Shown here: piece after piece, positions 517 to 30,494 of the stretch
Layout: each line of letters starts with the position of its first letter
Position numbering within the stretch: position 1 is the first letter of the stretch
From: Bacillota bacterium
Lineage (GTDB): Bacteria > Bacillota > Clostridia > Peptostreptococcales > Anaerovoracaceae
Length of the DNA stretch: 30,494 bases
Reading direction: 5' to 3'
NCBI GenBank assembly: GCA_017523605.1
Contig: JAFWVZ010000092.1
Span: forward strand, 1 to 30,494
The notes under the pieces: model-generated
The model's database searches: none
Seen by the model: the letters and a program-made list of their open reading frames with translations, nothing else
What the model was told of the DNA's origin: nothing
Translations under genes and position numbers: made by a program

Positions 517-609
517 ATAAGTGGCTCCTTAACATAATGCATATTACGGTGTATGAGCTTTCAGAGAGCTGGCAACTGTCAGTCTCCCGCCTCAGAGCCC
601 TAGCGCCGC

Positions 610-2547: not shown

Positions 2548-2595
2548 CGTTATTTCCTCCTGAGTATCGATATTATTAACCGTTTATATTTGCTC

Positions 2596-2624
2596 GCGCC
2601 TTCGGGGCCCTGCCCCTTAAGCGC
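2596..2624 (-). other. Possible mRNA stem-loop in the grpE-dnaK spacer
   Basis: Minus strand GCGCTT-aa-GGGG caggg CCCC-ga-AGGCGC pairs ~10 bp with an internal loop; no U-tract. Confidence 0.35.
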
Positions 2625-2638
2625 TGCTTATTGACTGT

Positions 2639-4458: not shown

Positions 4459-5499
4459 TTACTGAGCTACATTGCCGTCCGGCTGGCCGTAGATGAACTC
4501 CTTTATGGCGTTGCTGTTCTTCTGAAGGTCCGGCAGGACTACGGATCTGGTACCGTCTATCATTGCATACTTCCAGCCGCCGTCTATCGGCACACGCAGA
4601 GTCTCGCTTATGGAATAGCTGCTGCCGCCCACCTGGGTAATAAGGCCGAGTATGGTAGCGTTGTTCATATCCGTTGTAAAGCACGGAAGTATCTTGTCTG
4701 CCAGAGAAAGTATGTCCTTGAGAGGCAGTTTCTTGATCTTGTCGAATGCGGCTATCAGGACCTTACGCTGCCTTTCGGTGCGCTCGAAATCTCCCTGGCC
4801 CACGTTGCGAGTCCTTGCATATGCCAGAGTCTGCTCCGGATCCAGAGAGTTTACGCCTTCCTTAAGATGCCAGTGGAAACTGCTGTATGTAGGCTCCGTG
4901 TTAAGATAGTTTGCTTCCTGCTTTGTCAGGGCGATGTCCAGGTTACCGACGGCTGTCATAGCTTCTATGAACGACTCGAAGTTTACTGCTACGTTTCCGT
5001 CTATATGGACGCCGAAGTTCTTTTCCACCACCTCATCCAGAAGCGACATTCCGCCGAAGATGTATGCCGCATTGAGCCTGTTGTTGCTGTAGCCCGGGAT
5101 CTGGACATACATGTCGCGCATAAGGGAAGTGAGCTTGATGTCTTTGGTCTTTGAATTTACGCTGCAGATTATCATTGTATCCGATCTGCCGCGGGAATTA
5201 TCTGCATTAAGATCGTAGCCTATCAGAAGTATGTTCTTTACGTCCGATGCTTTGAACGTATCGATGTCTTCTCCGTTCAAGTCTACGTCGTTAGCGTTTA
5301 TGGCCTCTCCGCCGTTGCTCTCGCCCTGCTCGAAGGTCTCTTCATTCCTGTCGATGCGGTTCTCATTTCCGATACGTTTTATCAGATTCAGTTTTCCGCT
5401 TATTAAAAGCCAGCCGACAAGACCTACGATCGCTATTACAGCAACGAGGCTGATGACAACTTTAGATGCTGTTGACTTTTTCTTTTTTGCTGCACACAT
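4459..5499 (-). CDS. LytR-CpsA-Psr (LCP) family glycopolymer-peptidoglycan ligase, ~346 aa
   Basis: NILLIGYD, RSDTMII, TSLMRDMYVQIPG, RLNAAYIFGG, ALAYAR-like LAYARTR, DFERTERQRKVL; basic N-terminus plus one TM helix. Start moved from 5685 to ATG 5499 (SD GGGAG, own promoter upstream). Confidence 0.92.
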   Translation of the reverse strand: MCAAKKKKSTASKVVISLVAVIAIVGLVGWLLISGKLNLIKRIGNENRIDRNEETFEQGESNGGEAINANDVDLNGEDIDTFKASDVKNILLIGYDLNADNSRGRSDTMIICSVNSKTKDIKLTSLMRDMYVQIPGYSNNRLNAAYIFGGMSLLDEVVEKNFGVHIDGNVAVNFESFIEAMTAVGNLDIALTKQEANYLNTEPTYSSFHWHLKEGVNSLDPEQTLAYARTRNVGQGDFERTERQRKVLIAAFDKIKKLPLKDILSLADKILPCFTTDMNNATILGLITQVGGSSYSISETLRVPIDGGWKYAMIDGTRSVVLPDLQKNSNAIKEFIYGQPDGNVAQ

Positions 5500-5542
5500 T
5501 TTTATTGTATCTCCCTGCCCCCTTTTACTGACAAGTCCAGTT

Positions 5543-5571
5543 ATTATACACTTACCGCAATGTAAAGTCCA
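5543..5571 (-). promoter_or_regulatory. Putative sigma-A promoter of the LCP gene
   Basis: TGGACT (5571-5566), 17 nt, TATAAT (5548-5543). Confidence 0.6.
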
Positions 5572-5698
5572 TAAGGACAGCGTGAATAAATAGTGAAAGA
5601 GTAAAATTTTATACATATGCAGCAGATCGGGCCCCGCATCCCCGAGATGCAAATGATTGCAACGCTTTATGGACATGTGTCGCATTTATTCCGATCGA

Positions 5699-10142: not shown

Positions 10143-10859
10143 CTACTTCAGCCAGTTATCTTTATCCGATTTAAGATATGCCTTAAACATCTCCAGGTCG
10201 TCTTTGGTGGTAAGCTTTATGTTCTTGTCCGACCCGGCTGCGAAATACAAACGCACGCCCAGTTCTACCATCATCGTATTGGTATAGTGCGATCCGTAGA
10301 TGCCTATGCCCTTTTCGTACGCTTCGTGATACTTTGAATCCAGAAGATCGAATCTGTAAGCCTGAGGAGTGGATACTCTGCGGAGCGTCTCCCTCGGTAT
10401 GAACTTCGTGGTGCTTATCTCGTCGTCGATCACGAATATCTGCTCGTTGTACGGAAGCGATGTTACAGCGTTCCCGTATTCCTGCGCCTTGCGTATTACA
10501 TCGGTCAGAACAGTCTCATCGACCAGCGGTCTTATTCCGTCGTGGATAACGATGATGTCGCCGTCGGCAGCCTTACCTTCCAGGTTGTATACGCCGTTGC
10601 GGATGGATTCCTGACCGGTAGCTCCGCCGGAAACGATCCACTTAAGCTTATCGATGTTGAACTCCTTTGCATAAGCACGGAGAATGTCGTGCCAGCCGTC
10701 CAGACAGACCACTTCTATGGCATCGATCATCGGATGTTTCTGAAAACCTTCCAGTGTGTAGATCAGTATGGGCTTGTCATATACGTTGATGAACTGCTTG
10801 GGTATGTCCTGCCCCATTCTGGTACCGGATCCTCCGGCAATTATTACTGCAATAGTCAT
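10143..10859 (-). CDS. IspD/TarI-family cytidylyltransferase (alditol- or ketose-phosphate)
   Basis: IAGGSGTRMGQDIPKQF, IHDGIRP, TPQAY, NIKLTT; TAATG overlap with wzx. Confidence 0.88.
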   Translation of the reverse strand: MTIAVIIAGGSGTRMGQDIPKQFINVYDKPILIYTLEGFQKHPMIDAIEVVCLDGWHDILRAYAKEFNIDKLKWIVSGGATGQESIRNGVYNLEGKAADGDIIVIHDGIRPLVDETVLTDVIRKAQEYGNAVTSLPYNEQIFVIDDEISTTKFIPRETLRRVSTPQAYRFDLLDSKYHEAYEKGIGIYGSHYTNTMMVELGVRLYFAAGSDKNIKLTTKDDLEMFKAYLKSDKDNWLK

Positions 10860-12382
10860 TACGACTGCTCCTTTCCCTTTAACATGCTGCGCACTATTTC
10901 TATGTGCCGCTTTATTTTCCTGCCTTCAAAGGCATAATTTACTATCAGGAACAACAAGATGCTTACAACGAACATCATCAGTCCGCTTACAAAGAACCCG
11001 CCCCATGTCGACGCTGTAACTCCGATCTTGACCGAGATGAAAACTATCAGAGCCATAACGACAGCGTTTCTGATCAGCCTTGTAAAAGTGATCTTAAGTA
11101 CTTCGTGCTCAAAGAACCTTTTGCTGTATATGATCGAATCTATCGTCCTGTATGCGTAAGAGCATATGGTGCCTATCACCGCGCCGGCTATGCCGTATCT
11201 GAATATGAGGGCAAGCGTAACACCCAGGTTTATCACTGCTTCGGCAAATGCTCTCCACTGGGTCTGTTTATAATGACCTGCAGCGCATATCATGGAGAGT
11301 GCAGGGATCCTTATGTTCTGTATCAGTCCCATCATTACGAACAGGCCGGCAAGCCCGCGGCGTACGTATTCAGCGTCGCTTACGGAAGCTGTATAAATGC
11401 CCACGAAAGGCAGCAGAAGTACATACATGCAGGTGTAGACCGTAAAGATCAGAACGAAGTATAAAAACTCGAAACTGTCGAACGTATCCCTTAATTCATC
11501 CTTCCTGTCCATTACCAGCAGTTTGCCGAACGTGGGCGTGATCGCACCTGACAGCGAATTGGCCAGTGAAGTAAACATGTTGGCCGCCAAAGCGTACACA
11601 TAATAAACGCTCGCCTCTGTAAGAGATCTGGAACCAAGACATACCGTTATAAGTATTATGTCCGTATTATTGCATACCACGCCTACTATCTGATGGAAAA
11701 GCGCGCTCCATCTTTGCGGCAATGCATTCTTTTCCGTTTTTACATCAAATCTGATGTTATCATAATGTCTTCGAACATATATAACGATCAGCACCGTCCT
11801 GCAGGCATAGATGACGGTGGCTGCCAGCTTAACGAGCACCACGCTCTGTCCTGCAAGCATAAGCGCTATCGAAACTGCAATGTTCAGGATCGTTCCGATG
11901 CTTTGTATGTTGTTTAAAACGGATATCCTCTGATCCGCCGAGAGCAGCACCCTGTACTTCCCGAGAATGAAATAATCGATAAGATTGCTTCCGGCAAGGA
12001 CTATGATCATAAGTATCGACGTGGTACGGTCTACCTGCTCGCTTATTATTGCCGGATACAGCAGCACTAACAGAGCTAAAAGAACAACATACAGTATGCC
12101 GGACTGAAGATAAAACTTTTTTGCCGCACTGAGGACATAATTGCGCGACAGATCGTCCTTTTCTTCGAGAGGCTTGTACAATTCGACTATGGCCGACGCG
12201 CTTATTCCGGATTCCACCAGCGCCAGATACGAAAGGAACTGCGTGATGGAAGACACCATGCCGTTGATCGCGGAACCATAGCAGGAAATGAAATAGTGAG
12301 GCAGTATGATGCCTGACAGGGCCGTTACCACTTGCAGAACTATGCTCGATATTAAATTATTGATCGTTCTTTTTGATGTCAT
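10859..12382 (-). CDS. wzx: Wzx-type repeat-unit flippase (MOP superfamily)
   Basis: 507 aa with many TM segments; YGSAINGMVSSITQFLSYLALVESGI and LYKPL N-terminal pattern of Firmicute polysaccharide transporters. Confidence 0.85.
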   Translation of the reverse strand: MTSKRTINNLISSIVLQVVTALSGIILPHYFISCYGSAINGMVSSITQFLSYLALVESGISASAIVELYKPLEEKDDLSRNYVLSAAKKFYLQSGILYVVLLALLVLLYPAIISEQVDRTTSILMIIVLAGSNLIDYFILGKYRVLLSADQRISVLNNIQSIGTILNIAVSIALMLAGQSVVLVKLAATVIYACRTVLIVIYVRRHYDNIRFDVKTEKNALPQRWSALFHQIVGVVCNNTDIILITVCLGSRSLTEASVYYVYALAANMFTSLANSLSGAITPTFGKLLVMDRKDELRDTFDSFEFLYFVLIFTVYTCMYVLLLPFVGIYTASVSDAEYVRRGLAGLFVMMGLIQNIRIPALSMICAAGHYKQTQWRAFAEAVINLGVTLALIFRYGIAGAVIGTICSYAYRTIDSIIYSKRFFEHEVLKITFTRLIRNAVVMALIVFISVKIGVTASTWGGFFVSGLMMFVVSILLFLIVNYAFEGRKIKRHIEIVRSMLKGKEQS

Positions 12383-13307: not shown

Positions 13308-13309
13308 GG

Positions 13310-15857: not shown

Positions 15858-16856
15858 TCACCCTTTGCCCGGTGACGGCGTAGAATAATTCTTTTTAATA
15901 TACTTGAGCGCGAGGCTCTCATACGCTCTGCTGCTGAACATAAGCACCAGAGCCGCTATCTTTCTTGCTTTTCTGAAGTACGGATTGAATACGACGCGGA
16001 AAGTATTCCTCTTCAGAAAACGCATCATCTCTTTTTTCTCTTTCCGGTCCGCTTCCGAAAGCGTATCGGACTGGAGCATGTATTCCAGGACCCAGTAATA
16101 CGACCAAAGATACCTGTACTCCGCGGCTTTGCGCAGCTGCGGATAAGCCGCGACTACAAGTTCCATGTTGTTTTTATTTGCCTCTATGAGGCTTTTGACA
16201 GCAGGTCTGTACCTTTTGGTCGTGATGCTGTTTTCCCTGTGGATGTAGTGATATTTCGGCTTCAGATCGTAGACGACCTTTTTTGCGCGCATGATCACCG
16301 GAACGGTAGTGTGCGCATCTTCGTAAAGTTTTCCTACAGGAAATCTTACCTCGTCGAACAGTTCCTTTTTGTATATCTTGTTGACTGCGCTTACAGGGAC
16401 CTCTGTCAGTTCCAGCCTTACGGCATCGTAGGTGTCTGCAGTGCAGTAACCTATGCGGTCTTCTGTAACAGTTACCTTTTCGGTGTAATGCTGGTAAAAG
16501 CCGCATACCGAAACATCTGCATCCTCTTTTACAAGAGCGTTATACAGAGTCTCGATCATGTCCTCATCGACATAATCGTCACTGTCTATGAATGCTATAA
16601 GATCAGCCTGCGCAGCATCTATTCCGTGATTCCTGGCATCGCTCAGTCCGCCGTTCTTTTTATGGATCACCCGTACTCTGGGATCTGCGTCGGCGTATCC
16701 GTCGCACATGCGTCCGCAGCCGTCGGGAGAGCCGTCATCCACAAGAATGATCTCTATGTCGCGCATGCTCTGCGAAAGAAGCGACTGCACACATTTATCA
16801 AGATATTCTTCGACCTCGTAGACCGGAACTATTATGGAAACGAGGGGTCTTTGCAT
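15858..16856 (-). CDS. GT2 glycosyltransferase
   Basis: VSIIVPVYEVEEYL, ILVDDGSPD, NGGLSDARN, FIDSDD, GKLYED. Start set at ATG 16856 (GGAG 6 nt upstream); GTG 16877 is the alternative. Confidence 0.92.
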   Translation of the reverse strand: MQRPLVSIIVPVYEVEEYLDKCVQSLLSQSMRDIEIILVDDGSPDGCGRMCDGYADADPRVRVIHKKNGGLSDARNHGIDAAQADLIAFIDSDDYVDEDMIETLYNALVKEDADVSVCGFYQHYTEKVTVTEDRIGYCTADTYDAVRLELTEVPVSAVNKIYKKELFDEVRFPVGKLYEDAHTTVPVIMRAKKVVYDLKPKYHYIHRENSITTKRYRPAVKSLIEANKNNMELVVAAYPQLRKAAEYRYLWSYYWVLEYMLQSDTLSEADRKEKKEMMRFLKRNTFRVVFNPYFRKARKIAALVLMFSSRAYESLALKYIKKNYSTPSPGKG

Positions 16857-16877
16857 CTTCTGCTCCACTTTATACAC

Positions 16878-17759
16878 TCATCGCCCGGAAACAGCCTCGC
16901 CGGATCCGTCCTTGCAATAATATACGCCTTTATATTCCAGGTACGATCTTTCGGTATCGATGAATACCGCATCGTGCCCCGGTACCTGCTTTTCTTTCGG
17001 GGGAGGCGTCATGTAGTCTCCGAAAGCGATCCTAAGGTACTGATCGTAACCCACGGGAATAGGCATCTTTGTATCTTCGAAAACATGATATACAGCTTCC
17101 GCAAAGCATTCCTTAGGATATCTGTTCTTAAGGTAATGGGGACCGGCGCATATCTCCGTAATGGCATCGCAGTCGCGTATGCTGTACTTGGTCATATGCC
17201 TTTCCGCAGCCCTCCAGATCTTATATCTGGTCTTAGGGCTCCTTACTAAGGACAGCCCTATCCTGCCGGCAAACGCCGCAAGACCGCCGTGGTTCTCCGG
17301 TACCAGCTGAGCACAGTACAGCTGATAGATCAGCGCCCAGAACACCTGGATCTTGCGTTTGAGCCTGCTGTCCGGATATCCGTCCAGAGGGAATATGTCC
17401 AGAGCCAGACCGTGAGGTATGTCCATGTCTTTCTGGCTGGGCTTGATCATGGTAGTATTCTTGTCTCTGAGCGTGATGTACATGCTGTGATCGTTGTATT
17501 CTTCGGTAGGATACAGCAGTACGTATCTGTCAGTATCTTTCCACAGTTTTTTAAGCTTTTCGTAGTCGTCACGCGGCATGAAGAAATCCAGGTCGTCGTC
17601 CCATGGGATAAAACCGTTATGCCTTACAGCGCCTATGCAGCCTCCTCCGCAGAAATAGCAAAGCAGGCCGTTTTCCCTGCAGAAGTCCGAAAAGACTTTA
17701 GCAAGTTCCAGACAGCGCTTCTGTACGTTTTTCAGTAGTTCGTCAGTGTATATCTGCAT
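16878..17759 (-). CDS. LicD-family phosphotransferase
   Basis: GGGCIGAVRHNGFIPWDDDLDFFMPR, LDIFPLD, IPVGYDQYLRIAFGDYMTPPP. Alternative GTG start at 17792. Confidence 0.92.
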   Translation of the reverse strand: MQIYTDELLKNVQKRCLELAKVFSDFCRENGLLCYFCGGGCIGAVRHNGFIPWDDDLDFFMPRDDYEKLKKLWKDTDRYVLLYPTEEYNDHSMYITLRDKNTTMIKPSQKDMDIPHGLALDIFPLDGYPDSRLKRKIQVFWALIYQLYCAQLVPENHGGLAAFAGRIGLSLVRSPKTRYKIWRAAERHMTKYSIRDCDAITEICAGPHYLKNRYPKECFAEAVYHVFEDTKMPIPVGYDQYLRIAFGDYMTPPPKEKQVPGHDAVFIDTERSYLEYKGVYYCKDGSGEAVSGR

Positions 17760-17779
17760 TCTTTGTGTGTTTTGCGGGA

Positions 17780-18895
17780 TCAGTATTCCCACGCTTCATA
17801 TCTTCCGGTCTCAAGTATGTCCGCGATCCTTTTGCAGGCATGTCCGTCGCCGTAAGGATTGCACGCCTGCGACATCTTCTTGTACGAGTCGGGATCCTCG
17901 ATCAGCTCCGTAAACGCTCTGTAGATGTTCTCTTCACCGGTGCCGACCAGCTTAAGAGTTCCGGCAGCTACCCCTTCCGGTCTTTCTGTCGTATCTCTCA
18001 TCACCAGTACGGGAACACCGTAGGACGGACATTCTTCCTGGATGCCTCCGGAATCAGTAAGGCACAGGAAGCTTCTTGCTTCAAAATTATGGCAGTCGAA
18101 CACCTCTATAGGCTCGATTATGTGTATTCTGTCGCATCCGCCGAGCTCCTCTGCCGCAGCCTGCCTTACAAGAGGATTCATGTGGATCGGGTAGACCGCC
18201 CTGCAGTCTTCATGTTCGTCCAGGACGCGCCTAATGGCTCTGAACATGTGATGCATAGGCTCTCCGAGGTTCTCCCGTCTGTGCGCGGTAATGAATATGA
18301 GTTTGTTATCCCCCACCCACTCCAGCTCGGGATGAGTATAGTCCGCCTTAACGGTATGCTGCATAGCATCTATTACCGTATTTCCGGTAATGTATATCGA
18401 ATCAGGGTCTTTTCCTTCCCGTATCAGGTTCTCGGCAGCCAGCTTCGTGGGCGCGAAGTTGTATCTGCTTATTATTCCCACAGCCTGCCTGTTGAATTCT
18501 TCCGGATATGGGCTGTAGATGTTGTAGGTACGCAACCCTGCTTCAACATGGCCAACAGGGATCTTTAGGTAAAAGCACGCGAGCGCAGTAACGAAAGTAG
18601 TCGAAGTATCCCCGTGCACAAGGACTACGTCCGGGCTTACCTTTTCCAGAACGTCCTTTATGCGCTCCAGTATGCCTGCCGTGATGTCGAACAGCGTCTG
18701 CTTATCCTTCATTATGGACAGGTCGTGATCCGGAACTACATTGAACGTTGCAAGCACCTGGTCCAGCATCTGCCTGTGCTGTCCAGTTACGCATACCACG
18801 GTCTTTATTCCGCTTCTTTTTTTTAGTTCGTTTACAAGCGGGCACATTTTTATGGCCTCGGGTCTTGTACCGAACACTAATAATACTGTCTTCAT
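17780..18895 (-). CDS. wecB: Non-hydrolysing UDP-GlcNAc 2-epimerase (makes UDP-ManNAc)
   Basis: GTRPEAIKM, TGQHRQML, HGDT, HVEAGLRT, PEEFNRQ, HRREN, TDSGGIQEE, RDTTERPE. Confidence 0.96.
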   Translation of the reverse strand: MKTVLLVFGTRPEAIKMCPLVNELKKRSGIKTVVCVTGQHRQMLDQVLATFNVVPDHDLSIMKDKQTLFDITAGILERIKDVLEKVSPDVVLVHGDTSTTFVTALACFYLKIPVGHVEAGLRTYNIYSPYPEEFNRQAVGIISRYNFAPTKLAAENLIREGKDPDSIYITGNTVIDAMQHTVKADYTHPELEWVGDNKLIFITAHRRENLGEPMHHMFRAIRRVLDEHEDCRAVYPIHMNPLVRQAAAEELGGCDRIHIIEPIEVFDCHNFEARSFLCLTDSGGIQEECPSYGVPVLVMRDTTERPEGVAAGTLKLVGTGEENIYRAFTELIEDPDSYKKMSQACNPYGDGHACKRIADILETGRYEAWEY

Positions 18896-18930: not shown

Positions 18931-20187
18931 TCATTTGCCGCGCTCGATGCAGTTCATTATTATTTCCTGCCATTTACGGTTTATCTCGTCTGTGTCGAAG
19001 AGCCTGGCTGTCTGAAGAGCGTTATTCTTATACCTGCTCATCTCTTCGCTGTCCATGGTCGCGAAGAATTCAACGCCTTTGGCGTATTCTTCGGATGACC
19101 CGGCTTTTACGACCTTTCCGCAGCCGTATTTGGTTATTATCGGGTACTTCCCCTCGTCTATGTTTGCGATCACCGGATTGCCTGCCGCAAGATACTCAAA
19201 CAGCTTATTGGAACTGTTGCCGTACTTCTGCGTCTTTGCCGGTTTAAGGTTGAGCACGTTGAGGTCACTTCTGGAAAGCACATAGGGAATGTATTTTTTA
19301 TCTATGCTGCCTTTGAATACTACGTTCGTGATCCCTTCGTCGGCACAGCGCTTCGCAAGCACTTCCCTGTCCGGACCGTCGCCGTAGATAATGAAACGTA
19401 TCTTGTCTTTGAAACCGTCCTTGTTGAGGCTGTCCGCACAGGATACGACCGTGCCGATATCGTTGGCAGTTCTGACGCTTCCGCAGTACATTACGCGGAA
19501 TTTGTCATCCGTAAGATCCGGATCATCTATCTTGTAAGTCTCCAGGTTGTGATAAAATTCCTTAAGATCCACGCCGATGTTTATGTAGTGGAACTTACTT
19601 CTAGGGACCTGCTTATCCCAGCCCTTGTCGATAATGTAGTCGTAAGCTCCTTCCCATGTAAACACGAGCTCATCGGACTTTTTGTACAGCCATTTTTCGT
19701 AAGCGTACATAGCTTTTATGGCAGGGTTGTTGTCGGAAAAATCCGCATACTCCACTATCGACAGCGGCCAAAGGTCAACGATGCTCGTAATGTACGGGAT
19801 GTTATACTTTTTGGCGATCTTGTATCCGGCAAGGCATGACAGAGGCTGAGGCATTGCTGCCATGATCAAGTCGGGTCTTTCGAAATGACGGTAACACTTA
19901 AGCATGTTCAGATAGAAATCCACAAAGCTGAGCGACTCGCCTTTTCTGCTGCTGTAGGATCTGGTGCGGATATAGACGAACGGAACGCCGTCCACCATCT
20001 GTTCTTTGTATGTGCTTCCGTCGGTAATGAAATTAATGTCCGTATTGTGAAGCGCGCTCCCTGCAAACACCAGAGCGTCGCAGCCATGCTCGCGCAGATA
20101 CTTAGCCAGACTGTAATCCGGTATCCTCGGACAGTACGACGGCCCCCCGGCAAAATAGCTGATTATCCATACCATAGGTTTTTTCAT
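18931..20187 (-). CDS. GT4 glycosyltransferase, WbuB-like
   Basis: IVDLWPLSI, MYCGSV, YGDGPDR, NSSNKLFEYLAAG; first GT after the initiating transferase. Confidence 0.88.
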   Translation of the reverse strand: MKKPMVWIISYFAGGPSYCPRIPDYSLAKYLREHGCDALVFAGSALHNTDINFITDGSTYKEQMVDGVPFVYIRTRSYSSRKGESLSFVDFYLNMLKCYRHFERPDLIMAAMPQPLSCLAGYKIAKKYNIPYITSIVDLWPLSIVEYADFSDNNPAIKAMYAYEKWLYKKSDELVFTWEGAYDYIIDKGWDKQVPRSKFHYINIGVDLKEFYHNLETYKIDDPDLTDDKFRVMYCGSVRTANDIGTVVSCADSLNKDGFKDKIRFIIYGDGPDREVLAKRCADEGITNVVFKGSIDKKYIPYVLSRSDLNVLNLKPAKTQKYGNSSNKLFEYLAAGNPVIANIDEGKYPIITKYGCGKVVKAGSSEEYAKGVEFFATMDSEEMSRYKNNALQTARLFDTDEINRKWQEIIMNCIERGK

Positions 20188-20193
20188 CGGATG

Positions 20194-20892
20194 CTACTCC
20201 TTGTACTCTTTTCCCAAAACTGCGAACACCGTTCTGAACATGGTGGCTATGTCTCCGGAAAAGCTGAACTCCTTAATGCTTTTTAAGTTCCATTTCATCT
20301 TTTCCGGGAGCACCTTTTCTATGTAGACCTTGTCCACGTCGTCTGCCGCGTTAAGCAGCCGGTCTTCGTCTTTATATCTTATAGAGGCTTCGCTGGTTAT
20401 TCCGGCCGGCATCAGCAGTGTTGCCCTGTACTCCGGCTCGTAGCGTTCTATGTATTTTACGGCTTCCGGCCTTGTCCCTACAAAGGACATGCTGCCGGAT
20501 ATTACGTCCAGGACCTGCGGAAGCTCGTCCAGCCTGTGGCCTCTGAGCTTTGATCCGACCTTGGTTATCCTGCTGTCGTTGCCGACGGTAACGGTGCTTC
20601 CGATCTTATCCGCGTTGCTTACCATCGTACGGAACTTGTGTATCCTGAAATGTTTCCCGTACGCAGTGGCCCTTTCCTGTCTGTAGAACACGGGCCCTTC
20701 GGAGTCTCTCTTGATCAGAACAGCTATGACAGCCATCGGTATGGCCAAAATGATCAGGAGGATGACCCCTGCGACTATGTCGAACAGCCGCTTAAGCATC
20801 AGCTGACCGCGCTTTTTATTCAGTATCTCCCAGTAAGGGCGCACCTCCGGTACTCTCATGAAGTCCGGAAGATCATCCCATTTCTTTAACAT
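20194..20892 (-). CDS. Initiating phosphoglycosyltransferase (small monotopic PGT), probably for the 4-amino sugar
   Basis: KRLFD, FYRQER, KFRTM, RITKVG, LDELPQ, MSFVGTRPE, GITSEAS; from memory strongly resembles pneumococcal Spr1655; directly follows the aminotransferase. Confidence 0.92.
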   Translation of the reverse strand: MLKKWDDLPDFMRVPEVRPYWEILNKKRGQLMLKRLFDIVAGVILLIILAIPMAVIAVLIKRDSEGPVFYRQERATAYGKHFRIHKFRTMVSNADKIGSTVTVGNDSRITKVGSKLRGHRLDELPQVLDVISGSMSFVGTRPEAVKYIERYEPEYRATLLMPAGITSEASIRYKDEDRLLNAADDVDKVYIEKVLPEKMKWNLKSIKEFSFSGDIATMFRTVFAVLGKEYKE

Positions 20893-20906
20893 TCACTTTC
20901 CCCAAA

Positions 20907-22241
20907 CTACAGTTCTTTAATTGCTCCGCGCAGCGCTTCGCACACGTATTCGACGTCTTCGTCGGTAAGCAATGTATGCAGCGGAAGCGATATCAGGTTA
21001 TGGTAGTAATCGTAGGAATTCGGGAAATCCTTTATGTCCCATCCAAGCGCCTTATATGCCGTCATCATTGGGAGCGGTTTATAGTGTACGTTGGTCGCAA
21101 CACCTCGTTCCGCCATCTTTTCGATGATAAGGTTCCTAGTATCGGCGTCGATGCCCGGAACACGCATCAGGTACAGATGGTTGGAACTGTCCATGTCCGC
21201 CGTGTGATGGACCAGGTGGCTGATCCCAAGCTCATCGCACACCGCATCGTACTTGTTTATTATCTGAGTTCTGCGCTCGATAAGCCCCGGATAACGGTCC
21301 AGCTGGCGAAGGCCTATCGCGGCCATTATGTCCGTCATGTTGCACTTGTACCAGGGACCGATGATATCGTATTCCCAGGCGCCGAGCTTGGTCTTGGCGA
21401 GCGCGTCCTTGTTCTGTCCGTGCAGGGACAGGAGCTGGAACATCTTGTATATCTCCGCGTCTTCGACTCCGCTGACCGGAAGCCAGGTGCTGGCTCCGCC
21501 TTCTGCAGTCGTAAAGTTCTTTACTGCATGGAAGGAGAAGCTCGTAAAGTCCGCACTGGCTCCGCAGCATTTCTTTTCTCCGCGGAACAACCTGGAAGCG
21601 CCCAGGCTGTGAGCGCTGTCCGCAACGACTGCAACTCTTCCGAGCGCCTTCTGGATCCTGGAAGAAAGGTCTCCCAATGCCGTGCCGTCGCTCTCTGCAG
21701 GACTGAAAAGGTCCTTCTTTTTTTCGACTATTCCGAAAACTCTTTCGTAGTCGCAGACGATGCCGGCAAGATCCACCGTTACGATGGCTTTCGTTCTCTC
21801 GTTGATAAGCTTCTCCAGCGCATCGTAGTCCATTTCAGGCATATGCGTGGCCGGATCTCCGTCCTTCCGGATGTCGGCGAATACCACCTTTGCTCCGCAG
21901 TGAAGCGCCGCCGAAGCGGATGCTGTATATGTGTATGCAGGAACTATTACCTCATCTTCCGGACCTATCCCAAGCACGCGGAGATTAAGCTCCTCCGCAG
22001 CGGTCGCCGAGTTAAGGCATACTACCCTGTTGCTGTATTTCTCTGCATTGCCGGGCTCAGTGCAGTCTATGTCGTTGCGTCCGGTCTCTATGAAGGCTGC
22101 CAGCCTTCTTTCCAGAAGCTTGGTCCTGGGACCGGTCGTTATCCAGCCGCTCTTCAGTGCCTCACATACTTCTGCTATCTCGCTCTCACTGATGTCAGGA
22201 GGGCTGAAAGGTATTGTTTTTTTTCTGATATCGCTGCTCAT
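20907..22241 (-). CDS. DegT/DnrJ/EryC1/StrS PLP-dependent sugar 4-aminotransferase (Spr1654/WcfR-like)
   Basis: IPFSPPDI, SGWITTGP, DSAHSLG, SFSFHAVKNFTTAEGG (PLP lysine), LSLHGQNKDALAK, YKCNMTDI, NVHYKPLP. Start set at ATG 22241, 1 nt after the upstream stop. Confidence 0.92.
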   Translation of the reverse strand: MSSDIRKKTIPFSPPDISESEIAEVCEALKSGWITTGPRTKLLERRLAAFIETGRNDIDCTEPGNAEKYSNRVVCLNSATAAEELNLRVLGIGPEDEVIVPAYTYTASASAALHCGAKVVFADIRKDGDPATHMPEMDYDALEKLINERTKAIVTVDLAGIVCDYERVFGIVEKKKDLFSPAESDGTALGDLSSRIQKALGRVAVVADSAHSLGASRLFRGEKKCCGASADFTSFSFHAVKNFTTAEGGASTWLPVSGVEDAEIYKMFQLLSLHGQNKDALAKTKLGAWEYDIIGPWYKCNMTDIMAAIGLRQLDRYPGLIERRTQIINKYDAVCDELGISHLVHHTADMDSSNHLYLMRVPGIDADTRNLIIEKMAERGVATNVHYKPLPMMTAYKALGWDIKDFPNSYDYYHNLISLPLHTLLTDEDVEYVCEALRGAIKEL

Positions 22242-22242
22242 T

Positions 22243-23067
22243 TTATTCTTGTTCAAGTTCCCCTTTTCCAAAACCGGCCCCGGCTGTTTCCGCAGTCCTG
22301 ACCAAACACTCTGCATCCGCCAGGAAGCCCTCCAGATTGCCTTCCCGCAGGATCTTTACGTACTTGCCGTCCCATTCTGCCTTTTCTTTGTTGTTGAGCT
22401 CTATTCCGCCGTTCAGCTGAGCAAGACCTGTTATGCCCGGCATTACGTTGTTGGCGCCGTATTTATCGCGTTCTTCTATAAGCTCTTTTGTGTTCCATAT
22501 CACGGGTCTCGGACCGACCAGACTCATTTTGCCGCGGAACACGTCCCAAAGCTGTGGCAGCTCGTCCAGATAGGTCCTGCGCAGGAACCTGCCGACACGG
22601 GTCATGTACTCTTCCTGATCCTCGAACCTCTCTATTGGAACATCCGTAGGCGCGCTTTTCTTCATGGACCTGAACTTGTGGATCTCAAAGAATCGCTTAT
22701 CCTTCCCGACCCTCTTTTGCTTAAACAGCACGGGACCCGGGTCGTCTATCTCTATTGCCACGGCTATAAGTCCGAACAACGGAGCAAGTAATACAAGACC
22801 GCAGAACGAAACTACCTTATCCAGAGCTCTCTTGCCGAACCGCTCGTATGCGGTAGGCTCATCGGGTTCCTGCATGAGCGCATCCGCCCCGTCCCAGCCG
22901 TTGCCGATATAAGACGGCTCCAGATAAGGGTTGTCATCATCTATGTTTTCCGGCTCCTTTACTGCCTTGGCGAGCCTTTCCAGAAAGACAGCTGCACCGG
23001 TCAGAAACAGCGCAGCTGCTCCGATCTTAAGACCGGCACGTATTTTTTTCTTCTTGTTCTTATTCAT
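22243..23067 (-). CDS. Second initiating phosphoglycosyltransferase, diverged, with extra N-terminal hydrophobic segment
   Basis: KRALD, LFKQKRVG, KFRSM, LDELPQ, MSLVGPRP, ERDKYGANNVMPGITGLAQLNG; no clear SD upstream. Confidence 0.85.
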   Translation of the reverse strand: MNKNKKKKIRAGLKIGAAALFLTGAAVFLERLAKAVKEPENIDDDNPYLEPSYIGNGWDGADALMQEPDEPTAYERFGKRALDKVVSFCGLVLLAPLFGLIAVAIEIDDPGPVLFKQKRVGKDKRFFEIHKFRSMKKSAPTDVPIERFEDQEEYMTRVGRFLRRTYLDELPQLWDVFRGKMSLVGPRPVIWNTKELIEERDKYGANNVMPGITGLAQLNGGIELNNKEKAEWDGKYVKILREGNLEGFLADAECLVRTAETAGAGFGKGELEQE

Positions 23068-23078
23068 TCAGTCAATTG

Positions 23079-25052
23079 CTATATAGGCGTAAACATCCTT
23101 GTGTTTCGGAACTCATCCGCGCTCTGGGCGTAGGCGTTCACCTCTTCCGGAGACCTGTAGGTCGGAACTACGGATTTAAGAGCATCCTTTACGGAAGCGT
23201 CGCTGCCGGTGCTGAGCGCGGTCTTAAGTAGTCCGAGCCTGAGCCCCAGATCGCTCATTGAAAGCGGCGTGTCGCGCTCTATGAAGATAAGTTCGTTGTC
23301 CGTCTTGTCCAGACCTTCGTCACGCACCAGAAGCTCTTCGTAGAGCTTTTCACCGGGGCGAAGTCCGGTCTCGATAATGTCTATGTCCTTGTAGGGTTCC
23401 AGACCGGAAAGACGGATAAGGTTCTCCGCAAGGTCAAGTATCTTTACCGGCTGGCCCATGTCGAGGACGAAAAGCTCTCCGTTCTTAGCCATTACTCCGG
23501 ACTGCAGCACCAGACTGGAAGCCTCGGGGATGGTCATGAAGTAGCGTATTATCCTTTTATCCGTAATGGTTATCGGACCGCCGTTAGCTATCTGCTTCTT
23601 AAAGAGAGGTATGACGGATCCGGCAGAACCCAGAACGTTTCCGAACCTTGTAGCGGAGAAGCTGGTCCCGCTGCCGCTCTGGCTGTGCGCCTGCACTATC
23701 ATCTCGCACATGCGCTTGGTAGCGCCCATGACGTTGGTGGGATTTACAGCCTTGTCCGTGCTTACCATCATGAAACGCTCCGCGCCGTACTTTTCCGCAA
23801 GCTCCACGCAGTTGAGCGTTCCGAACACGTTGTTTTCAACGGCCTCTATCACGTTGTGCTCCATCAGCGGCACGTGTTTATGAGCCGCGGCATTTATTAT
23901 TATCTGAGGTCTGTAATAATCAAAAACTCTTTCCAGAGCCGGCCTGTTGCAGATGGACAGTATCTCAACCTTAAGATTGAGCTTGTTTCCGTGCTCCAGC
24001 CGCAGTTCCTGCTGCAGATCGTAAGCGCCGTTCTCATAGACGTCCAGAATTATCAGCTGTCTGGGATCCATCCTGGCTATCTGCCTGCAGAGCTCCGAAC
24101 CTATCGATCCGCCGCCGCCTGTAACGAGAGTTACCTTGCCCTTAAAGTACGCCGCAGTCTTTTCGTCTTTAACGTCTATCTCGCGTCGGAAGAGAAGCTC
24201 GTCTATGTCGAACTCACGAAGTGACTTTTTGCTGCCTGCAGTGCGCATGGTGGGATAGTCGTAGACCTTTACCTTATATCCCATCCCCTTATAGCGCTCG
24301 TATATCGCCTTTTTCTGTTCGGGAGTAGGCGACGTTACAGCCATAACCACTTCCTGGATCTCGTATCTTGAAAGTGTCTCCACCGTAGCGGATTCCTCGG
24401 ATATGACAGGAACGTTGAATATCTCCTTGCCTATCTTTTCCTCGTTTACGTCTACGTAGCAGCGAGGCAGGTAAGCAGATGCGGGGTTGCTCATAAGCTC
24501 CGATGCCAGAGTCGTACCTACGCGGCCGGCTCCTATGATGGCGATGTTGATCTTATTGGTTCCTGCACCCACGTCCGCGCTGAGGCTGTCTCCGCTGAAA
24601 AGACGGTAAAGGACCCTGAGGATCTTGCCTCTGGTGGTATCCTGATTTCCGAATTTATAGGTGTAGCGGTACATCATCCTCATGCCCAGGCACAGAAGAA
24701 GCTCTATGGTGAACAGGGAAATGGAAGCGACCGCTGTCATCCTCTGCATGTTGGTAAGTCTTAACAACGAAAACACTATGAAAGCGCAGAAATCCGACAG
24801 CATCAGCTTAATGTAAGACTGGATGCCTCCGTACCTCCATACGAGTCCGTATATCTTGAAGAAACTCCTGAACACCATGATGAAGACATACGCCAGAACA
24901 AGCTGTATGATCTTGTTCTGGAATGTCATGTAGTCGGAGCCTCTGTATATGACGAACAGCAGGACTGCAGTAGCGACATAGATCAGAAAATCATATATCA
25001 CCAGCGCCCATCTTATCGTCTTTTTCTGATGTGTATTACCGGGTTCTTTCAT
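23079..25052 (-). CDS. CapD/PglF-type membrane-bound UDP-GlcNAc 4,6-dehydratase
   Basis: N-terminal TM helices, IIGAGRVG, TGGGGSIGSEL, AAAHKHVPLME, STDKAVNPTNVMGATKR, RFGNVLGS, RYFMTIPEA, GLRPGEKLYEEL. Confidence 0.94.
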   Translation of the reverse strand: MKEPGNTHQKKTIRWALVIYDFLIYVATAVLLFVIYRGSDYMTFQNKIIQLVLAYVFIMVFRSFFKIYGLVWRYGGIQSYIKLMLSDFCAFIVFSLLRLTNMQRMTAVASISLFTIELLLCLGMRMMYRYTYKFGNQDTTRGKILRVLYRLFSGDSLSADVGAGTNKINIAIIGAGRVGTTLASELMSNPASAYLPRCYVDVNEEKIGKEIFNVPVISEESATVETLSRYEIQEVVMAVTSPTPEQKKAIYERYKGMGYKVKVYDYPTMRTAGSKKSLREFDIDELLFRREIDVKDEKTAAYFKGKVTLVTGGGGSIGSELCRQIARMDPRQLIILDVYENGAYDLQQELRLEHGNKLNLKVEILSICNRPALERVFDYYRPQIIINAAAHKHVPLMEHNVIEAVENNVFGTLNCVELAEKYGAERFMMVSTDKAVNPTNVMGATKRMCEMIVQAHSQSGSGTSFSATRFGNVLGSAGSVIPLFKKQIANGGPITITDKRIIRYFMTIPEASSLVLQSGVMAKNGELFVLDMGQPVKILDLAENLIRLSGLEPYKDIDIIETGLRPGEKLYEELLVRDEGLDKTDNELIFIERDTPLSMSDLGLRLGLLKTALSTGSDASVKDALKSVVPTYRSPEEVNAYAQSADEFRNTRMFTPI

Positions 25053-25055
25053 TAT

Positions 25056-26075
25056 CTATCCCTCGTATCCGTTGGGATTGTTCTTCTGCCAGTTCCATGT
25101 GTCGCGGCACATCTCCTCGAGCCCTCTTACAGCTTCCCATCCAAGGATCTTTTTGCTCTTGACAGGGTCGCTGTACAGTTCGGCCAGGTCTCCGGGACGC
25201 CTTTCGGCAATTACGTAAGGGATCCTGATCCCGCTGGCTTTTTCAAACGCTTTTACGATATCCATAACGGAATAGCCGGTACCGGTACCCAGATTAAAGA
25301 CCTCTTCACCGGTGTGTGATACCGCATACTCCACAGCTTTCAGATGCCCTTCGGCAAGATCCATTACATGTATGTAATCCCTTACGCCTGTTCCGTCGGG
25401 AGTGTCGTAATCGTTTCCGAATATGTTCAGATGATCGCGTCTGCCTACGGCGACCTGCGAAATGTAAGGCATCAGATTGTTCGGGATCCCGCTGGGGTCC
25501 TCTCCGATCAGCCCGGAAGGATGAGCTCCTATAGGGTTGAAATAACGGAGGTTCACCACGCTCACTCCGGGGTCCGATGCAGCCCAGTCTCTAAGGATCT
25601 GCTCGTTCATGAATTTAGTCCAGCCGTAGGGATTGGTGCAGTTACCGGTGCGGTCGGTCTCGGAGAACGGAGACGGGACATTGCGTCCGTCGTAAACTGT
25701 TGCGGATGAAGAGAAGATCATTCTCTTGCAGCCATGTTCCGACATTACCTTGGCCAGAGAGATGGTGGATGCAAGATTGTTGTCGTAATACTCCAGCGGT
25801 TTCTGCGTGGATTCCCCGACAGCCTTAAATCCTGCAAAATGTATTACACAGTCTATCTTATTAGCCTCGAAGATCCTGTCTAAAGCAGCGCGGTCGCATA
25901 CGTCGGCCTTGTAAAACGTTAAGGTCTTTCCGGTGATACGCTCGACCCTGCGCAGGGCTTCCTCCGAGGAGTTGGACAGATCGTCGGCGACGATAACATC
26001 GTACCCGTTTTCAAGCAGTACTACACAGGTATGAGACCCTATGTATCCGGTCCCTCCTGTTACCAGAACAGTCAT
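25056..26075 (-). CDS. galE: UDP-glucose 4-epimerase
   Basis: GGTGYIGSH, IHFAGFKAVGES, SSSATVY, YGWTK, LRYFNPIGAH, GVRDYIHV. Confidence 0.96.
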   Translation of the reverse strand: MTVLVTGGTGYIGSHTCVVLLENGYDVIVADDLSNSSEEALRRVERITGKTLTFYKADVCDRAALDRIFEANKIDCVIHFAGFKAVGESTQKPLEYYDNNLASTISLAKVMSEHGCKRMIFSSSATVYDGRNVPSPFSETDRTGNCTNPYGWTKFMNEQILRDWAASDPGVSVVNLRYFNPIGAHPSGLIGEDPSGIPNNLMPYISQVAVGRRDHLNIFGNDYDTPDGTGVRDYIHVMDLAEGHLKAVEYAVSHTGEEVFNLGTGTGYSVMDIVKAFEKASGIRIPYVIAERRPGDLAELYSDPVKSKKILGWEAVRGLEEMCRDTWNWQKNNPNGYEG

Positions 26076-29016: not shown

Positions 29017-29036
29017 CTTTATTATCTTTAATATAT

Positions 29037-29065
29037 GGAAAAGCCGGAAGACGAGCTCCCGGCTT
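29037..29065 (-). terminator. Intrinsic terminator of thrS
   Basis: AAGCCGGGAG ctcgt CTTCCGGCTT: 10-bp stem with one G-U, then a short U-run (GGCUUUUCC). Confidence 0.65.
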
Positions 29066-29070
29066 CAAGC

Positions 29071-29114
29071 GTTGAAAACACTGCGTCCGGCGCGTTTTTC
29101 AACTGCCGGACGCA
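29071..29114. repeat. Two interleaved perfect inverted repeats (A-B-A'-B') after the thrS stop
   Basis: A gttgaaaa 29071-29078 / A' ttttcaac 29096-29103; B tgcgtccggc 29082-29091 / B' gccggacgca 29105-29114. Confidence 0.8.
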
Positions 29115-29124
29115 TAATTATCAG

Positions 29125-30494
29125 TTACTTTATCCTCTTGTTATACACGTCGTCCTTGAGGATCGCGAGGAAATCGGCCAGCTGCATGGTGCCCAGATCG
29201 CCTTCCGACCTGTGGCGCGGAGCCAGCGTGCCGGCCTCCATGTCGCGGTCTCCGACAACGATCATGTACGGTACCTTCTCCATCTGCGCGTCGCGTATCT
29301 TACGGCCCGTCTTCTCGTTGCGCTTGTCGACTTCAACACGGTAGCCCAGAGCCTCGAGTTTCTCCTTTATGCCGTCCGCGTAACCGTATGCTCTGTCCGT
29401 TACGGGCAGGATCTTTACCTGAACCGGGGACAGCCACGTGGGGAACGCGCCCGCGAAGTGCTCCGTAATAACGCCTATGAAGCGCTCTATGGAACCGTAA
29501 ACCACGCGGTGGATCATAACCGGAGTCTGCTTTTCGGAGTTGGAATCCGTGTATTCCAGATCGAACCTTCCGGGCAGCTGGTAGTCCAGCTGGATGGTTC
29601 CGCACTGCCATACTCTTCCCAGAGAGTCGGTTACGTGGAAATCCAGTTTGGGGCCGTAGAACGCACCGTCTCCGGGGTTGATCTCGTAGGTCTTGCCTAT
29701 GGACGTTATGGCATCCGCGAGAGCCGCTTCCGCCTTCTCCCAGTCGCCGCGGGTACCGATGTGGTCCTCGGGCATCGTGGACAGAACGATCTTATACGGA
29801 AGTCCGAACACGTTGTAGACTTCGTCGATAAGCTTTGTGATGCGCACTACTTCGCCCTGGATCTGGTCCTTGGCAAGCAGTATGTGCGCGTCGTCCTGAG
29901 TGAAGCACCTTACGCGGAACATTCCGTGAAGAGCGCCGGACAGTTCGTGTCTGTGGACCCTTCCAAGTTCGCCGTAGCGCAGCGGCAGATCCCTGTAGCT
30001 GTGCGGCTCAAGAGCGTATACCAGTATGGAACCGGGGCAGTTCATGGGCTTTATCGCGTAGTCCTCGTCCTCGATCACCGTGGTGTACATGTTGTCCTTG
30101 TAGTGTTCCCAGTGGCCGGACGTCTCCCAGAGAGTGCGCTTCATGATCTGAGGCGTGGAGATCTCCAGGTAATCGTATTTCTTATGCATCTGCCTCCAGT
30201 AGTCGATGAGCAGGTTCTGCAGTATCATGCCCTTGGGCAGATAGAACGGGAAGCCGGGAGCCTCGTCGCGGAACGCGAACAGACCCAGCTCTCTTCCGAG
30301 CTTTCTGTGGTCCCTCTTCTTAGCTTCTTCTATGCGCTCCAGATACTGTTCCAGCTCTTCCTTCTTCTGGAAGGCTATTCCGTATATACGCTGAAGGGTC
30401 TCCCTGTTGGAGTCGCCTCTCCAGTACGCGGCGTTGCAGGTGAGCAGCTTAAGAGCGTTGCCCTTGATGCGGCCGGTGTAATCGAGATGCGGTC
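29125..30494 (-). CDS. thrS: Threonine--tRNA ligase, C-terminal part (5' end off the window)
   Basis: Frame stays open beyond the track's Met at 30228: AAYWRGDSNRETLQRIYG, EAKKRDHRKLG, KPMNCPG, RHELSGALHGMFRVR, FYGPKLD, WQCGTIQLD, HRVVYGSIERF. Confidence 0.98.
   Translation of the reverse strand, partial: PHLDYTGRIKGNALKLLTCNAAYWRGDSNRETLQRIYGIAFQKKEELEQYLERIEEAKKRDHRKLGRELGLFAFRDEAPGFPFYLPKGMILQNLLIDYWRQMHKKYDYLEISTPQIMKRTLWETSGHWEHYKDNMYTTVIEDEDYAIKPMNCPGSILVYALEPHSYRDLPLRYGELGRVHRHELSGALHGMFRVRCFTQDDAHILLAKDQIQGEVVRITKLIDEVYNVFGLPYKIVLSTMPEDHIGTRGDWEKAEAALADAITSIGKTYEINPGDGAFYGPKLDFHVTDSLGRVWQCGTIQLDYQLPGRFDLEYTDSNSEKQTPVMIHRVVYGSIERFIGVITEHFAGAFPTWLSPVQVKILPVTDRAYGYADGIKEKLEALGYRVEVDKRNEKTGRKIRDAQMEKVPYMIVVGDRDMEAGTLAPRHRSEGDLGTMQLADFLAILKDDVYNKRIK

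Follow-up and report, generated by a model that had tools for sequence, protein, structure and literature searches.

A candidate AATGal-primed, phosphate-bearing wall polysaccharide locus in an uncultured rumen-type clostridium

The locus and its four-gene core

We analyzed a stretch of 30,494 nucleotides, called the window from here on (contig C29 in our numbering, GenBank JAFWVZ010000092.1), of the assembly GCA_017523605.1, a metagenome-assembled genome (MAG) of an uncultured rumen-type member of the Clostridia that amounts to 1.53 Mb in 261 contigs and is 73% complete. The window contains a polysaccharide locus of 24.4 kb (4459-28903) with housekeeping genes at both ends (Table 1). From 28903 down to 9067 on the minus strand it codes for two Wzz-like proteins, GalE, a 4,6-dehydratase, a small phosphoglycosyl transferase (PGT1), a sugar aminotransferase, a second phosphoglycosyl transferase (PGT2), a glycosyltransferase of family GT4, WecB, LicD, a GT2 glycosyltransferase, Wzy, a further GT4, a GT14, a 507-residue polytopic protein, an IspD-like cytidylyltransferase and a short-chain dehydrogenase/reductase (SDR); MBOAT and AlgX-like genes on the plus strand and an LCP (LytR-CpsA-Psr) gene on the minus strand stand outside that run. 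The four genes at 20194-25052, namely those for the dehydratase, PGT1, the aminotransferase and PGT2, are the core of what follows. They point to the sugar 2-acetamido-4-amino-2,4,6-trideoxygalactose (AATGal), which provides the positive charge of Bacteroides fragilis polysaccharide A (PSA), pneumococcal Sp1 and pneumococcal teichoic acid. A reading of the bare sequence that preceded this work (the original prediction) had named the dehydratase, the aminotransferase and the phosphoglycosyl transferase (PGT) adjoining it, all three of which Pfam searches recover where it had placed them; its gene list left out PGT1, the second small PGT of the segment.

The dehydratase has its Polysacc_synt_2 domain at residues 309-591, preceded by an N-terminal region of about 300 residues, and finds its best match in PDB in Campylobacter jejuni PglF/WlaL (5BJU, 293.6 bits), as against 147, 136 and 120 bits for the inverting or epimerising enzymes, respectively FnlA-type 4J2O, FlaA1/PseB 2GN4 and CapE. 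By these scores the 4,6-dehydratase of the original prediction is assigned to the PglF type, with UDP-4-keto-6-deoxy-GlcNAc as its predicted product. It is 89% identical to its counterpart in the nearest relative of the locus, found in a Bacillota MAG from goat omasum (L005).

The longest open reading frame (ORF) of the aminotransferase reaches 22316 and overlaps the PGT1 gene, and translation likely starts at the ATG at 22241 (Met26), just past the PGT1 stop codon. The protein matches Spr1654 (PDB: 6EWJ) with an e-value of 1.1e-142 and 478.8 bits, ArnB and PseC with at most 161 bits, and C. jejuni PglE with a mere 33 (1O61) and 32 bits (4ZTC). Spr1654 has been proposed to make the AATGal of pneumococcal teichoic acid, and the paper on its structure names its catalytic and sugar-binding residues as well as two insertions that are unique to it (PMC5936713). 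The catalytic Lys199 is conserved in the alignment with the window protein, as are Tyr84, His196, Val198, Gln234, Tyr249, Lys257, His344 and Tyr345, and both insertion regions align, being longer still in the window protein. The motifs on which the original prediction had relied (IPFSPPDI, FSFHAVKNFTTAEGG, LSLHGQNKDALAK and NVHYKPLP) are without exception present in the translation, and the close kinship with Spr1654 that it had drawn from them is borne out by the score, the active-site residues and the insertions. From these sequence features we identify the enzyme as the Spr1654 orthologue; its product is most likely a UDP-2-acetamido-4-amino-2,4,6-trideoxyhexose of galacto configuration, the configuration at C4 being one that we infer from orthology only. 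In the comparisons with named systems the B. fragilis pair WcfR/WcfS is represented by a pair from Parabacteroides distasonis and PglE by the PDB bit scores. The Parabacteroides aminotransferase is 58% identical to that of the window, and Shigella sonnei WbgX, 33% identical, forms a long branch outside the Spr1654 clade on the tree. The gene is the sole strong DegT-family gene of the MAG. A scan of a genome collection recovered relatives in more than 581 species genomes, and a close homologue is present in 61 of the 401 Lactobacillales genomes searched.

PGT2 starts 15 nucleotides past the aminotransferase stop codon and contains the PGT motifs quoted in the original prediction, in the form of KKWDDLPDFM, FVGTRPE and VLPEKMKWNL. 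It is 54% identical, over 227 of its 232 residues, to the PGT adjoining the aminotransferase of a mitis-group streptococcus, a genome so assigned because its aminotransferase, which we used as the Spr1654 marker, scores 842 bits against 6EWJ; the same streptococcal PGT shows just 39% identity, over 142 residues, to PGT1. On the PGT tree, PGT2 and the mitis-group Spr1655 orthologues fall into a clade of 63 PGTs (SH-aLRT 99), to which S. sonnei WbgY and the WcfS-like PGT of Parabacteroides, itself 42% identical to PGT2, are the next sisters with 98% support. The claim that the PGT next to the aminotransferase tracks Spr1655 thus stands on both identity and clade. Scores against PglC and WbaP are 70 and 77 bits, respectively. 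PGT2 is predicted to move AATGal-1-phosphate onto undecaprenyl phosphate.

Comparison of the window with L005 (L005:9980-12045) gave synonymous distances (dS) of 0.53-0.66 for the aminotransferase and PGT2 genes (20194-22241) and of 1.4-1.9 for the flanking dehydratase, PGT1 and Wzz-like genes. This difference suggests that the aminotransferase and PGT2 genes form a two-gene cassette that has been exchanged more recently than its flanks. Relatives at 72-75% identity also occur in MAGs labelled as Bacteroidaceae (L034), Coriobacteriaceae (L036) and Acidaminococcaceae (L025).

Clade of the phosphoglycosyl transferase and fate of the 4-amine

Searches for domains detected no Hexapep, PglD_N, GNAT, ATP-grasp or formyltransferase domain among the ORFs of the window, and tblastn searches of the window with the modifier genes of related loci returned no match, in agreement with the original prediction, which had seen no PglD-type N-acetyltransferase in the locus. 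An unlinked PglD, the other place where it might be sought, is likewise missing from the assembled MAG (73% complete), with no match to PglD_N (PF17836) and none to the NeuD family above the cut-off. Weak matches to TIGR03570 in the MAG were considered as PglD candidates and rejected, the proteins being Rex, a GlgC-like nucleotidyltransferase and a generic hexapeptide protein.

We then compared the gene neighborhoods of the best 80 of the more than 581 genomes with an aminotransferase relative (62-93% identity), almost all of them rumen or gut Clostridia MAGs. Of these 80 loci, 54 have, along with the aminotransferase, a PGT of the PGT2 type (an orthologue at 55% identity or more), which adjoins it directly in 48 and is split from it only by a VanZ-like gene or a transposase in 5 more; 22 related loci have a PGT of another type. 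Between or beside the aminotransferase and the PGT of the non-PGT2 loci lie genes for an ATP-grasp protein resembling L-amino-acid ligases, for a formyltransferase along with a PIG-L deacetylase, or for a GNAT protein, and one such locus carries a PglD-like protein with a PglD_N domain. Among the loci with at least 3 kb of downstream sequence, a modifier-like gene was found within 3.5 kb in 6 of 49 with a PGT2-type enzyme versus 19 of 22 with another PGT (Fisher p = 2e-9, a value that ignores the shared ancestry of the loci). The six exceptions were examined as 4-N-acetyltransferases and rejected, since they are WbpD hexapeptide genes about 3 kb away, in WbpB-WbpD-WbpE(-WbpA) cassettes. Because these cassettes serve 2,3-diacetamido-uronic acid and not the 4-amine, the true count after reclassification is 0/49 versus 19/22.

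The PGT tree presents the same division: the PGT2 clade of 63 members holds no modifier locus, and the PGTs of the modifier loci lie, together with PGT1, on the opposite side of the tree. Mapped onto the aminotransferase tree, the modifier label is dispersed, with 19 changes for 21 rows, which is no better than shuffled labels. A label that is scattered on one tree and clustered on the other indicates that all these loci use one and the same aminotransferase and that it is the type of PGT that tracks the fate of the amine. Given that none of the 49 PGT2-type loci and 19 of the 22 others have a 4-N-modifier, a free amine at the priming step is a well-supported prediction for the window, and to the extent that in silico evidence reaches, the free amine of the original prediction is upheld.

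A variant of the sugar is probably made by a capsule-type locus on a 44-kb plasmid of Enterococcus hirae (NZ_CP068121.1; L087), which combines CpsC/D/B, a dehydratase and an SDR with a Spr1654-type aminotransferase (54% identity), a PGT of the other clade and an ATP-grasp ligase, a combination that would yield an N-aminoacylated form.

The phosphate branch and the remaining genes

The phosphate of the predicted polymer would come from the LicD-family protein, the gene for which is the single LicD match in the whole MAG; the protein had no match in PDB. As the original prediction had it, LicD is encoded in the locus, and we find that its operon also includes the cytidylyltransferase and SDR genes. 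The former scores 85-86 bits against the ribitol-5-phosphate cytidylyltransferases 4JIS and 6XHP, slightly under its scores against true IspD enzymes, and the matches of the pair to NCBIfam equivalog models are all below the cut-off. Across related loci, LicD occurs within 10 kb in 11 of 83. A 277-kb P. distasonis record annotated as a plasmid ('plasmid 45', NZ_OY725790.1; L085) has a locus of nearly the same gene logic, flanked by a PD-(D/E)XK transposase, with genes for a flippase, Wzy, GT2, LicD, a glycosyltransferase, the aminotransferase and a PGT as well as a cytidylyltransferase fused to an SDR.

L005, the nearest relative, has in common with the window, at 73-95% identity, the 5' block that begins with the Wzz-like genes and extends as far as PGT2, and in place of the LicD/alditol region it carries (L005:12042-17385) a GT4 and a WbpB-WbpD-WbpE-WbpA-like cassette for a 2,3-diacetamido uronic acid. 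With the 5' block kept and the 3' block swapped, related lineages appear to pair one cationic primer with different anions; the Wbp-type cassette recurs in at least nine further related loci.

Another contig of the MAG, the 6-kb C188 (L128:225-6011), contains four successive genes, for a choline/ethanolamine-kinase-like protein, a nucleotidyltransferase, a protein of 875 residues in which YidC-like and sulfatase domains are combined, and a TagF-like glycerophosphotransferase, and may specify a second phospho-polymer or a head-group pathway. The original prediction had stated that choline genes are lacking; this holds for the locus only, given the kinase-like gene beside the nucleotidyltransferase on this contig.

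The remaining genes are listed in Table 1. No Pfam match was obtained for the two Wzz-like proteins, which are 75-77% identical to their counterparts in L005 and have no kinase alongside. The 507-residue polytopic protein matches no Pfam or NCBIfam model and has weak homologues (30-31% identity) in four related polysaccharide loci. MBOAT and the AlgX-like protein are presumed to be an O-acylation pair; O-acylation, like GT14 and LCP, had been part of the original prediction, and all of these genes are present by Pfam. An ORF on the plus strand (29035-30492) is without a family match, overlaps the aminoacyl-tRNA synthetase ORF of the minus strand and is probably spurious.

Table 1. Genes of the 30,494-nucleotide window, beginning with the four-gene core
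Feature	Position	Strand	Match or remark
PglF/Spr0092-type membrane-anchored retaining UDP-GlcNAc 4,6-dehydratase (predicted), 657 aa	23079..25052	-	Pfam Polysacc_synt_2, E 2.4e-114
PGT1, small monotopic phosphoglycosyl transferase, 274 aa	22243..23067	-	Bac_transf, E 6.5e-51
Spr1654/WcfR-type pyridoxal-phosphate sugar 4-aminotransferase (DegT family), 444 aa from Met26	20907..22241	-	PDB 6EWJ match
PGT2, Spr1655/WcfS/WbgY-type initiating transferase, 232 aa	20194..20892	-	Bac_transf, E 1.5e-52
LicD-family phosphotransferase, predicted alditol-phosphate transfer	16878..17792	-	Pfam LicD, E 2.4e-49
IspD/TarI-like cytidylyltransferase	10143-10859	-	Pfam IspD, E 2.6e-39
SDR, predicted partner in CDP-alditol synthesis	9067-10131	-	Pfam Epimerase, E 1e-37
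Two tandem Wzz/PCP-like proteins, 454 and 489 aa	26077..28903	-	each transmembrane segment / long coiled coil / transmembrane segment
GalE, UDP-glucose 4-epimerase	25056..26075	-	NCBIfam TIGR01179, 448 bits, above cut-off
GT4, probably second-sugar transferase	18931..20187	-	Pfam Glycos_transf_1 and Glyco_transf_4
WecB, non-hydrolysing UDP-GlcNAc 2-epimerase, UDP-ManNAc supply	17780..18895	-	TIGR00236, 501 bits, above cut-off
GT2	15858-16877	-	Pfam
Wzy polymerase	14397-15854	-	PF14296, E 4.8e-84; TIGR04370 above cut-off
GT4	13310-14404	-	Pfam
GT14 'Branch'	12390-13343	-	Pfam
Presumed Wzx-type flippase, 507-aa polytopic membrane protein	10859..12382	-	hydrophobic throughout
AlgX-like SGNH protein	7243-9051	+	Pfam ALGX, E 7e-7
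MBOAT	5796-7226	+	Pfam MBOAT, E 1.4e-25; DltB model 159 bits, below cut-off of 375
LCP glycopolymer-peptidoglycan ligase	4459..5685	-	Pfam, E 1.2e-33; TIGR00350, 94 bits, above cut-off
dnaJ, dnaK, grpE, hrcA	1-4262	-	left border of locus
Class II aminoacyl-tRNA synthetase	29125-30228	-	tRNA-synt_2b and HGTP_anticodon; right border of locus

Elsewhere in the MAG, contig C130 (L130:1407-8970) has genes for a pyruvyltransferase-GT4 fusion, a GT4, DUF4330, Wzy_C (O-antigen-ligase-like) and TagA/WecG, adjoining those for FtsE, FtsX and a PcsB-like M23 peptidase, and looks like a locus for a pyruvylated secondary cell-wall polymer. The idea that the window encodes the organism's sole wall polymer was rejected in view of the TagA/pyruvyltransferase/Wzy_C genes of this contig and the TagF-like genes of contig C188.

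Predicted pathway, alternative readings and known systems

Taken together, the gene content makes it reasonably probable that a polysaccharide anchored to peptidoglycan is made here by a Wzx/Wzy-type pathway; it would resemble pneumococcal teichoic acid, be primed by AATGal with a free amine and bear a LicD-installed alditol-phosphate. The pathway that we propose would run as follows: 1) the PglF-type dehydratase would turn UDP-GlcNAc into UDP-4-keto-6-deoxy-GlcNAc; 2) the Spr1654-type aminotransferase would form UDP-AATGal; 3) PGT2 would begin each repeat unit by loading AATGal, with its 4-amine free, on undecaprenyl phosphate, the presence of Wzy implying that the initiating sugar occurs once per repeat unit; 4) the two GT4, one GT2 and one GT14 enzymes would extend it, with UDP-ManNAc supplied via WecB and UDP-Gal or UDP-GalNAc via GalE; 5) LicD would attach one alditol-phosphate from the CDP-alditol made by the IspD-like/SDR pair; 6) once the product is flipped, Wzy would polymerise it under the two Wzz-like proteins, the MBOAT/AlgX-like pair would O-acylate it and LCP would attach it to the wall. 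The predicted repeat unit would thus have one amine and one phosphodiester, or about one positive and one negative charge. What the sequences themselves show is which genes are present, how they are related to known ones and how PGT clade and modifiers go together; it is from the genes that we infer the stereochemistry, the state of the amine once the polymer is complete, the nature of the polyol, the sequence in which the glycosyltransferases act, the charge balance and any T-cell activity.

Several points tell against this pathway. Formation of UDP-AATGal by Spr1654 itself has never been shown biochemically (PMC5936713). The association of PGT clade with modifiers is not robust to phylogenetic correction: six independent contrasts on well-supported branches gave five in the expected direction and none in the opposite one (p ~0.06). 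The flippase role of the 507-residue protein is presumed from position and hydrophobicity only. An SDR replaces the Zn-dependent TarJ of the pneumococcus in the predicted synthesis of the CDP-alditol. Moreover, 27% of the genome is unseen, so that an unlinked N-acyltransferase is possible; PGT1, in the same operon and under purifying selection, could be the true initiator of the repeat unit; and the LicA/LicC-like genes on contig C188 could supply LicD with another head group. The last three points each open onto a different account of the locus.

If an enzyme encoded in the unassembled part of the genome N-acylated the 4-amino sugar, or if acylation followed export, the finished polymer would carry negative charges only and be a conventional glycan of the teichoic-acid-like sort. 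The incompleteness of the MAG leaves room for this, a generic 220-residue hexapeptide transferase is encoded on its contig C119, and in roughly one in four related loci the same family of aminotransferases supplies the sugar for N-acylated products. However, loci that do modify the sugar have the modifier gene immediately next to the aminotransferase and a PGT of a different clade, whereas the PGT here is of the Spr1655 type, for which the reclassified count is nil, and the assembled genome has no PglD_N domain. We regard acylation by an unlinked enzyme as unlikely.

PGT1 raises a question of another kind. It sits between the dehydratase and the aminotransferase, has an additional N-terminal hydrophobic segment, and groups on the PGT tree with the PGTs of 4-N-modifier loci, its nearest relatives being in L005, L045, L018 and L020, the last of which, its nearest modifier-linked relative, adjoins a PglD-like gene. 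No Bac_transf PGT other than PGT1 and PGT2 was found in the MAG. With its LDELPQ dyad and PRP motif intact and a dN/dS of 0.08 against L005, PGT1 is maintained under purifying selection, and the notion that it is a decaying relic was rejected on these grounds. With PGT1 in the operon, the identity of the sugar that primes the repeat unit is harder to call. PGT1 might initiate the Wzy repeat unit with another sugar, leaving AATGal to prime a minor glycan or a once-per-chain linkage unit, in which case the main polymer would not be zwitterionic. In favor of such a division of labor are the intact state of PGT1, the imbalance of two PGTs to one Wzy and one flippase-like gene, and the recurrence of the PGT1-type and PGT2-type pair in L005 and L045; on the other hand, it is PGT2 whose partnership with the aminotransferase is conserved, its identity to the L005 counterpart is 95% as compared with 78% for PGT1, most related Wzy loci have a PGT2-type initiator alone, and the window holds no second set of assembly genes. 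Initiation by PGT1 thus strikes us as improbable, and AATGal as the primer of the repeat unit is retained as the preferred account.

It is less likely still that the aminotransferase yields the gluco epimer, a bacillosamine-type 4-amine, in place of AATGal. C4 stereochemistry is unreadable from sequence and no in vitro product is on record for Spr1654; against this, Spr1654, to which the enzyme is orthologous, comes from an organism with AATGal in its teichoic acid, a Bacteroidales relative is 58% identical to the enzyme, and the match to the gluco-forming PglE reaches only 33 bits. Even so the sugar would remain cationic. That LicD transfers phosphocholine, phosphoethanolamine or the like with the help of the contig C188 genes, the IspD-like/SDR pair serving another step, fits the kinase-nucleotidyltransferase pair there and the inclusion of phosphocholine transferases among LicD enzymes, but is very improbable, since those genes lie on a different contig, where TagF-like and sulfatase-domain membrane proteins are encoded next to them, the window LicD shares its operon with the cytidylyltransferase/SDR pair as in the P. 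distasonis locus, and a phosphodiester would be present either way.

The closest parallel to the predicted AATGal-primed pathway is the type IV teichoic acid of the pneumococcus and the mitis group (Spr0092, Spr1654, Spr1655), a parallel that the original prediction had drawn and that we can follow through the dehydratase, aminotransferase, PGT, LicD, Wzy and LCP, here gathered in one locus. The likeness lies in a PglF-type dehydratase, an orthologous aminotransferase, an adjoining PGT at 54% identity, LicD with a predicted CDP-alditol route, a Wzy-type polymerase, LCP and an inferred flippase. The window differs in having all of these genes together with no licA, licB or licC among them, just one LicD, no kinase in the locus, and an SDR as the partner of the cytidylyltransferase; it adds WecB, GT14, the MBOAT/AlgX-like pair, two Wzz-like proteins and the second PGT. 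As its glycosyltransferase set is unlike the pneumococcal one, its repeat unit should differ too.

The route from PglF/UngD2 through WcfR and WcfS to undecaprenyl-diphosphate-AATGal has been demonstrated experimentally (PMC13063421). The initiation of B. fragilis PSA by these enzymes follows the same three-step logic, with Wzx/Wzy assembly thereafter; there, however, the anion is a pyruvate ketal and not a phosphodiester, and the window places the dehydratase inside the locus and would make a Gram-positive wall polymer with LCP, the likeness being drawn through the P. distasonis pair (58% and 42% identity). The form I O-antigen of S. sonnei (WbgV/WbgX/WbgY), in which AATGal goes by the name FucNAc4N, likewise brings together a dehydratase, an aminotransferase and a small PGT, with WbgY grouping with the PGT2 clade (98%); WbgX is far more distant, at just 33% identity, and the acidic partner is a uronic acid. 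The diNAcBac (N,N'-diacetylbacillosamine) pathway of C. jejuni (PglF/PglE/PglD/PglC) offers the best match to the dehydratase and shares the small monotopic architecture of its PGT, but PglE scores just 33 bits against the window aminotransferase, PglD has no counterpart, and for PGT2 the score against PglC (70 bits) does not exceed the one against WbaP (77 bits).

As summarised in PMC10167101, a screen of more than 8000 genomes for wcfR orthologues found putative operons for AATGal-containing zwitterionic polysaccharides in hundreds of them, from diverse bacterial orders (Neff et al. 2016). An AATGal-primed, phosphate-bearing design is already known and very common in gut bacteria, and the present locus adds nothing new in kind. 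A wider generalization is tentative, and we rate it as possible rather than likely: the clade of the small PGT, not the aminotransferase, would tell the fate of the amine, such that Spr1655-type cassettes would mark free-amine Wzy polymers akin to pneumococcal teichoic acid in hundreds of gut and rumen Clostridia, with the anion swapped by lineage (alditol-phosphate here, 2,3-diacetamido-uronic acid in the nearest relative) and with a maintained PGT1 allowing one operon to prime two glycans. Loci of this sort predict which uncultured gut and rumen bacteria display glycans with both charges. A possible rule is that a Spr1655-type PGT right after the aminotransferase goes with an unmodified amine, and that modifiers of the ATP-grasp, formyl, GNAT or PglD-like kinds accompany a PGT of the other clade; such a rule could sharpen the prediction of zwitterionic polymers from genomes.

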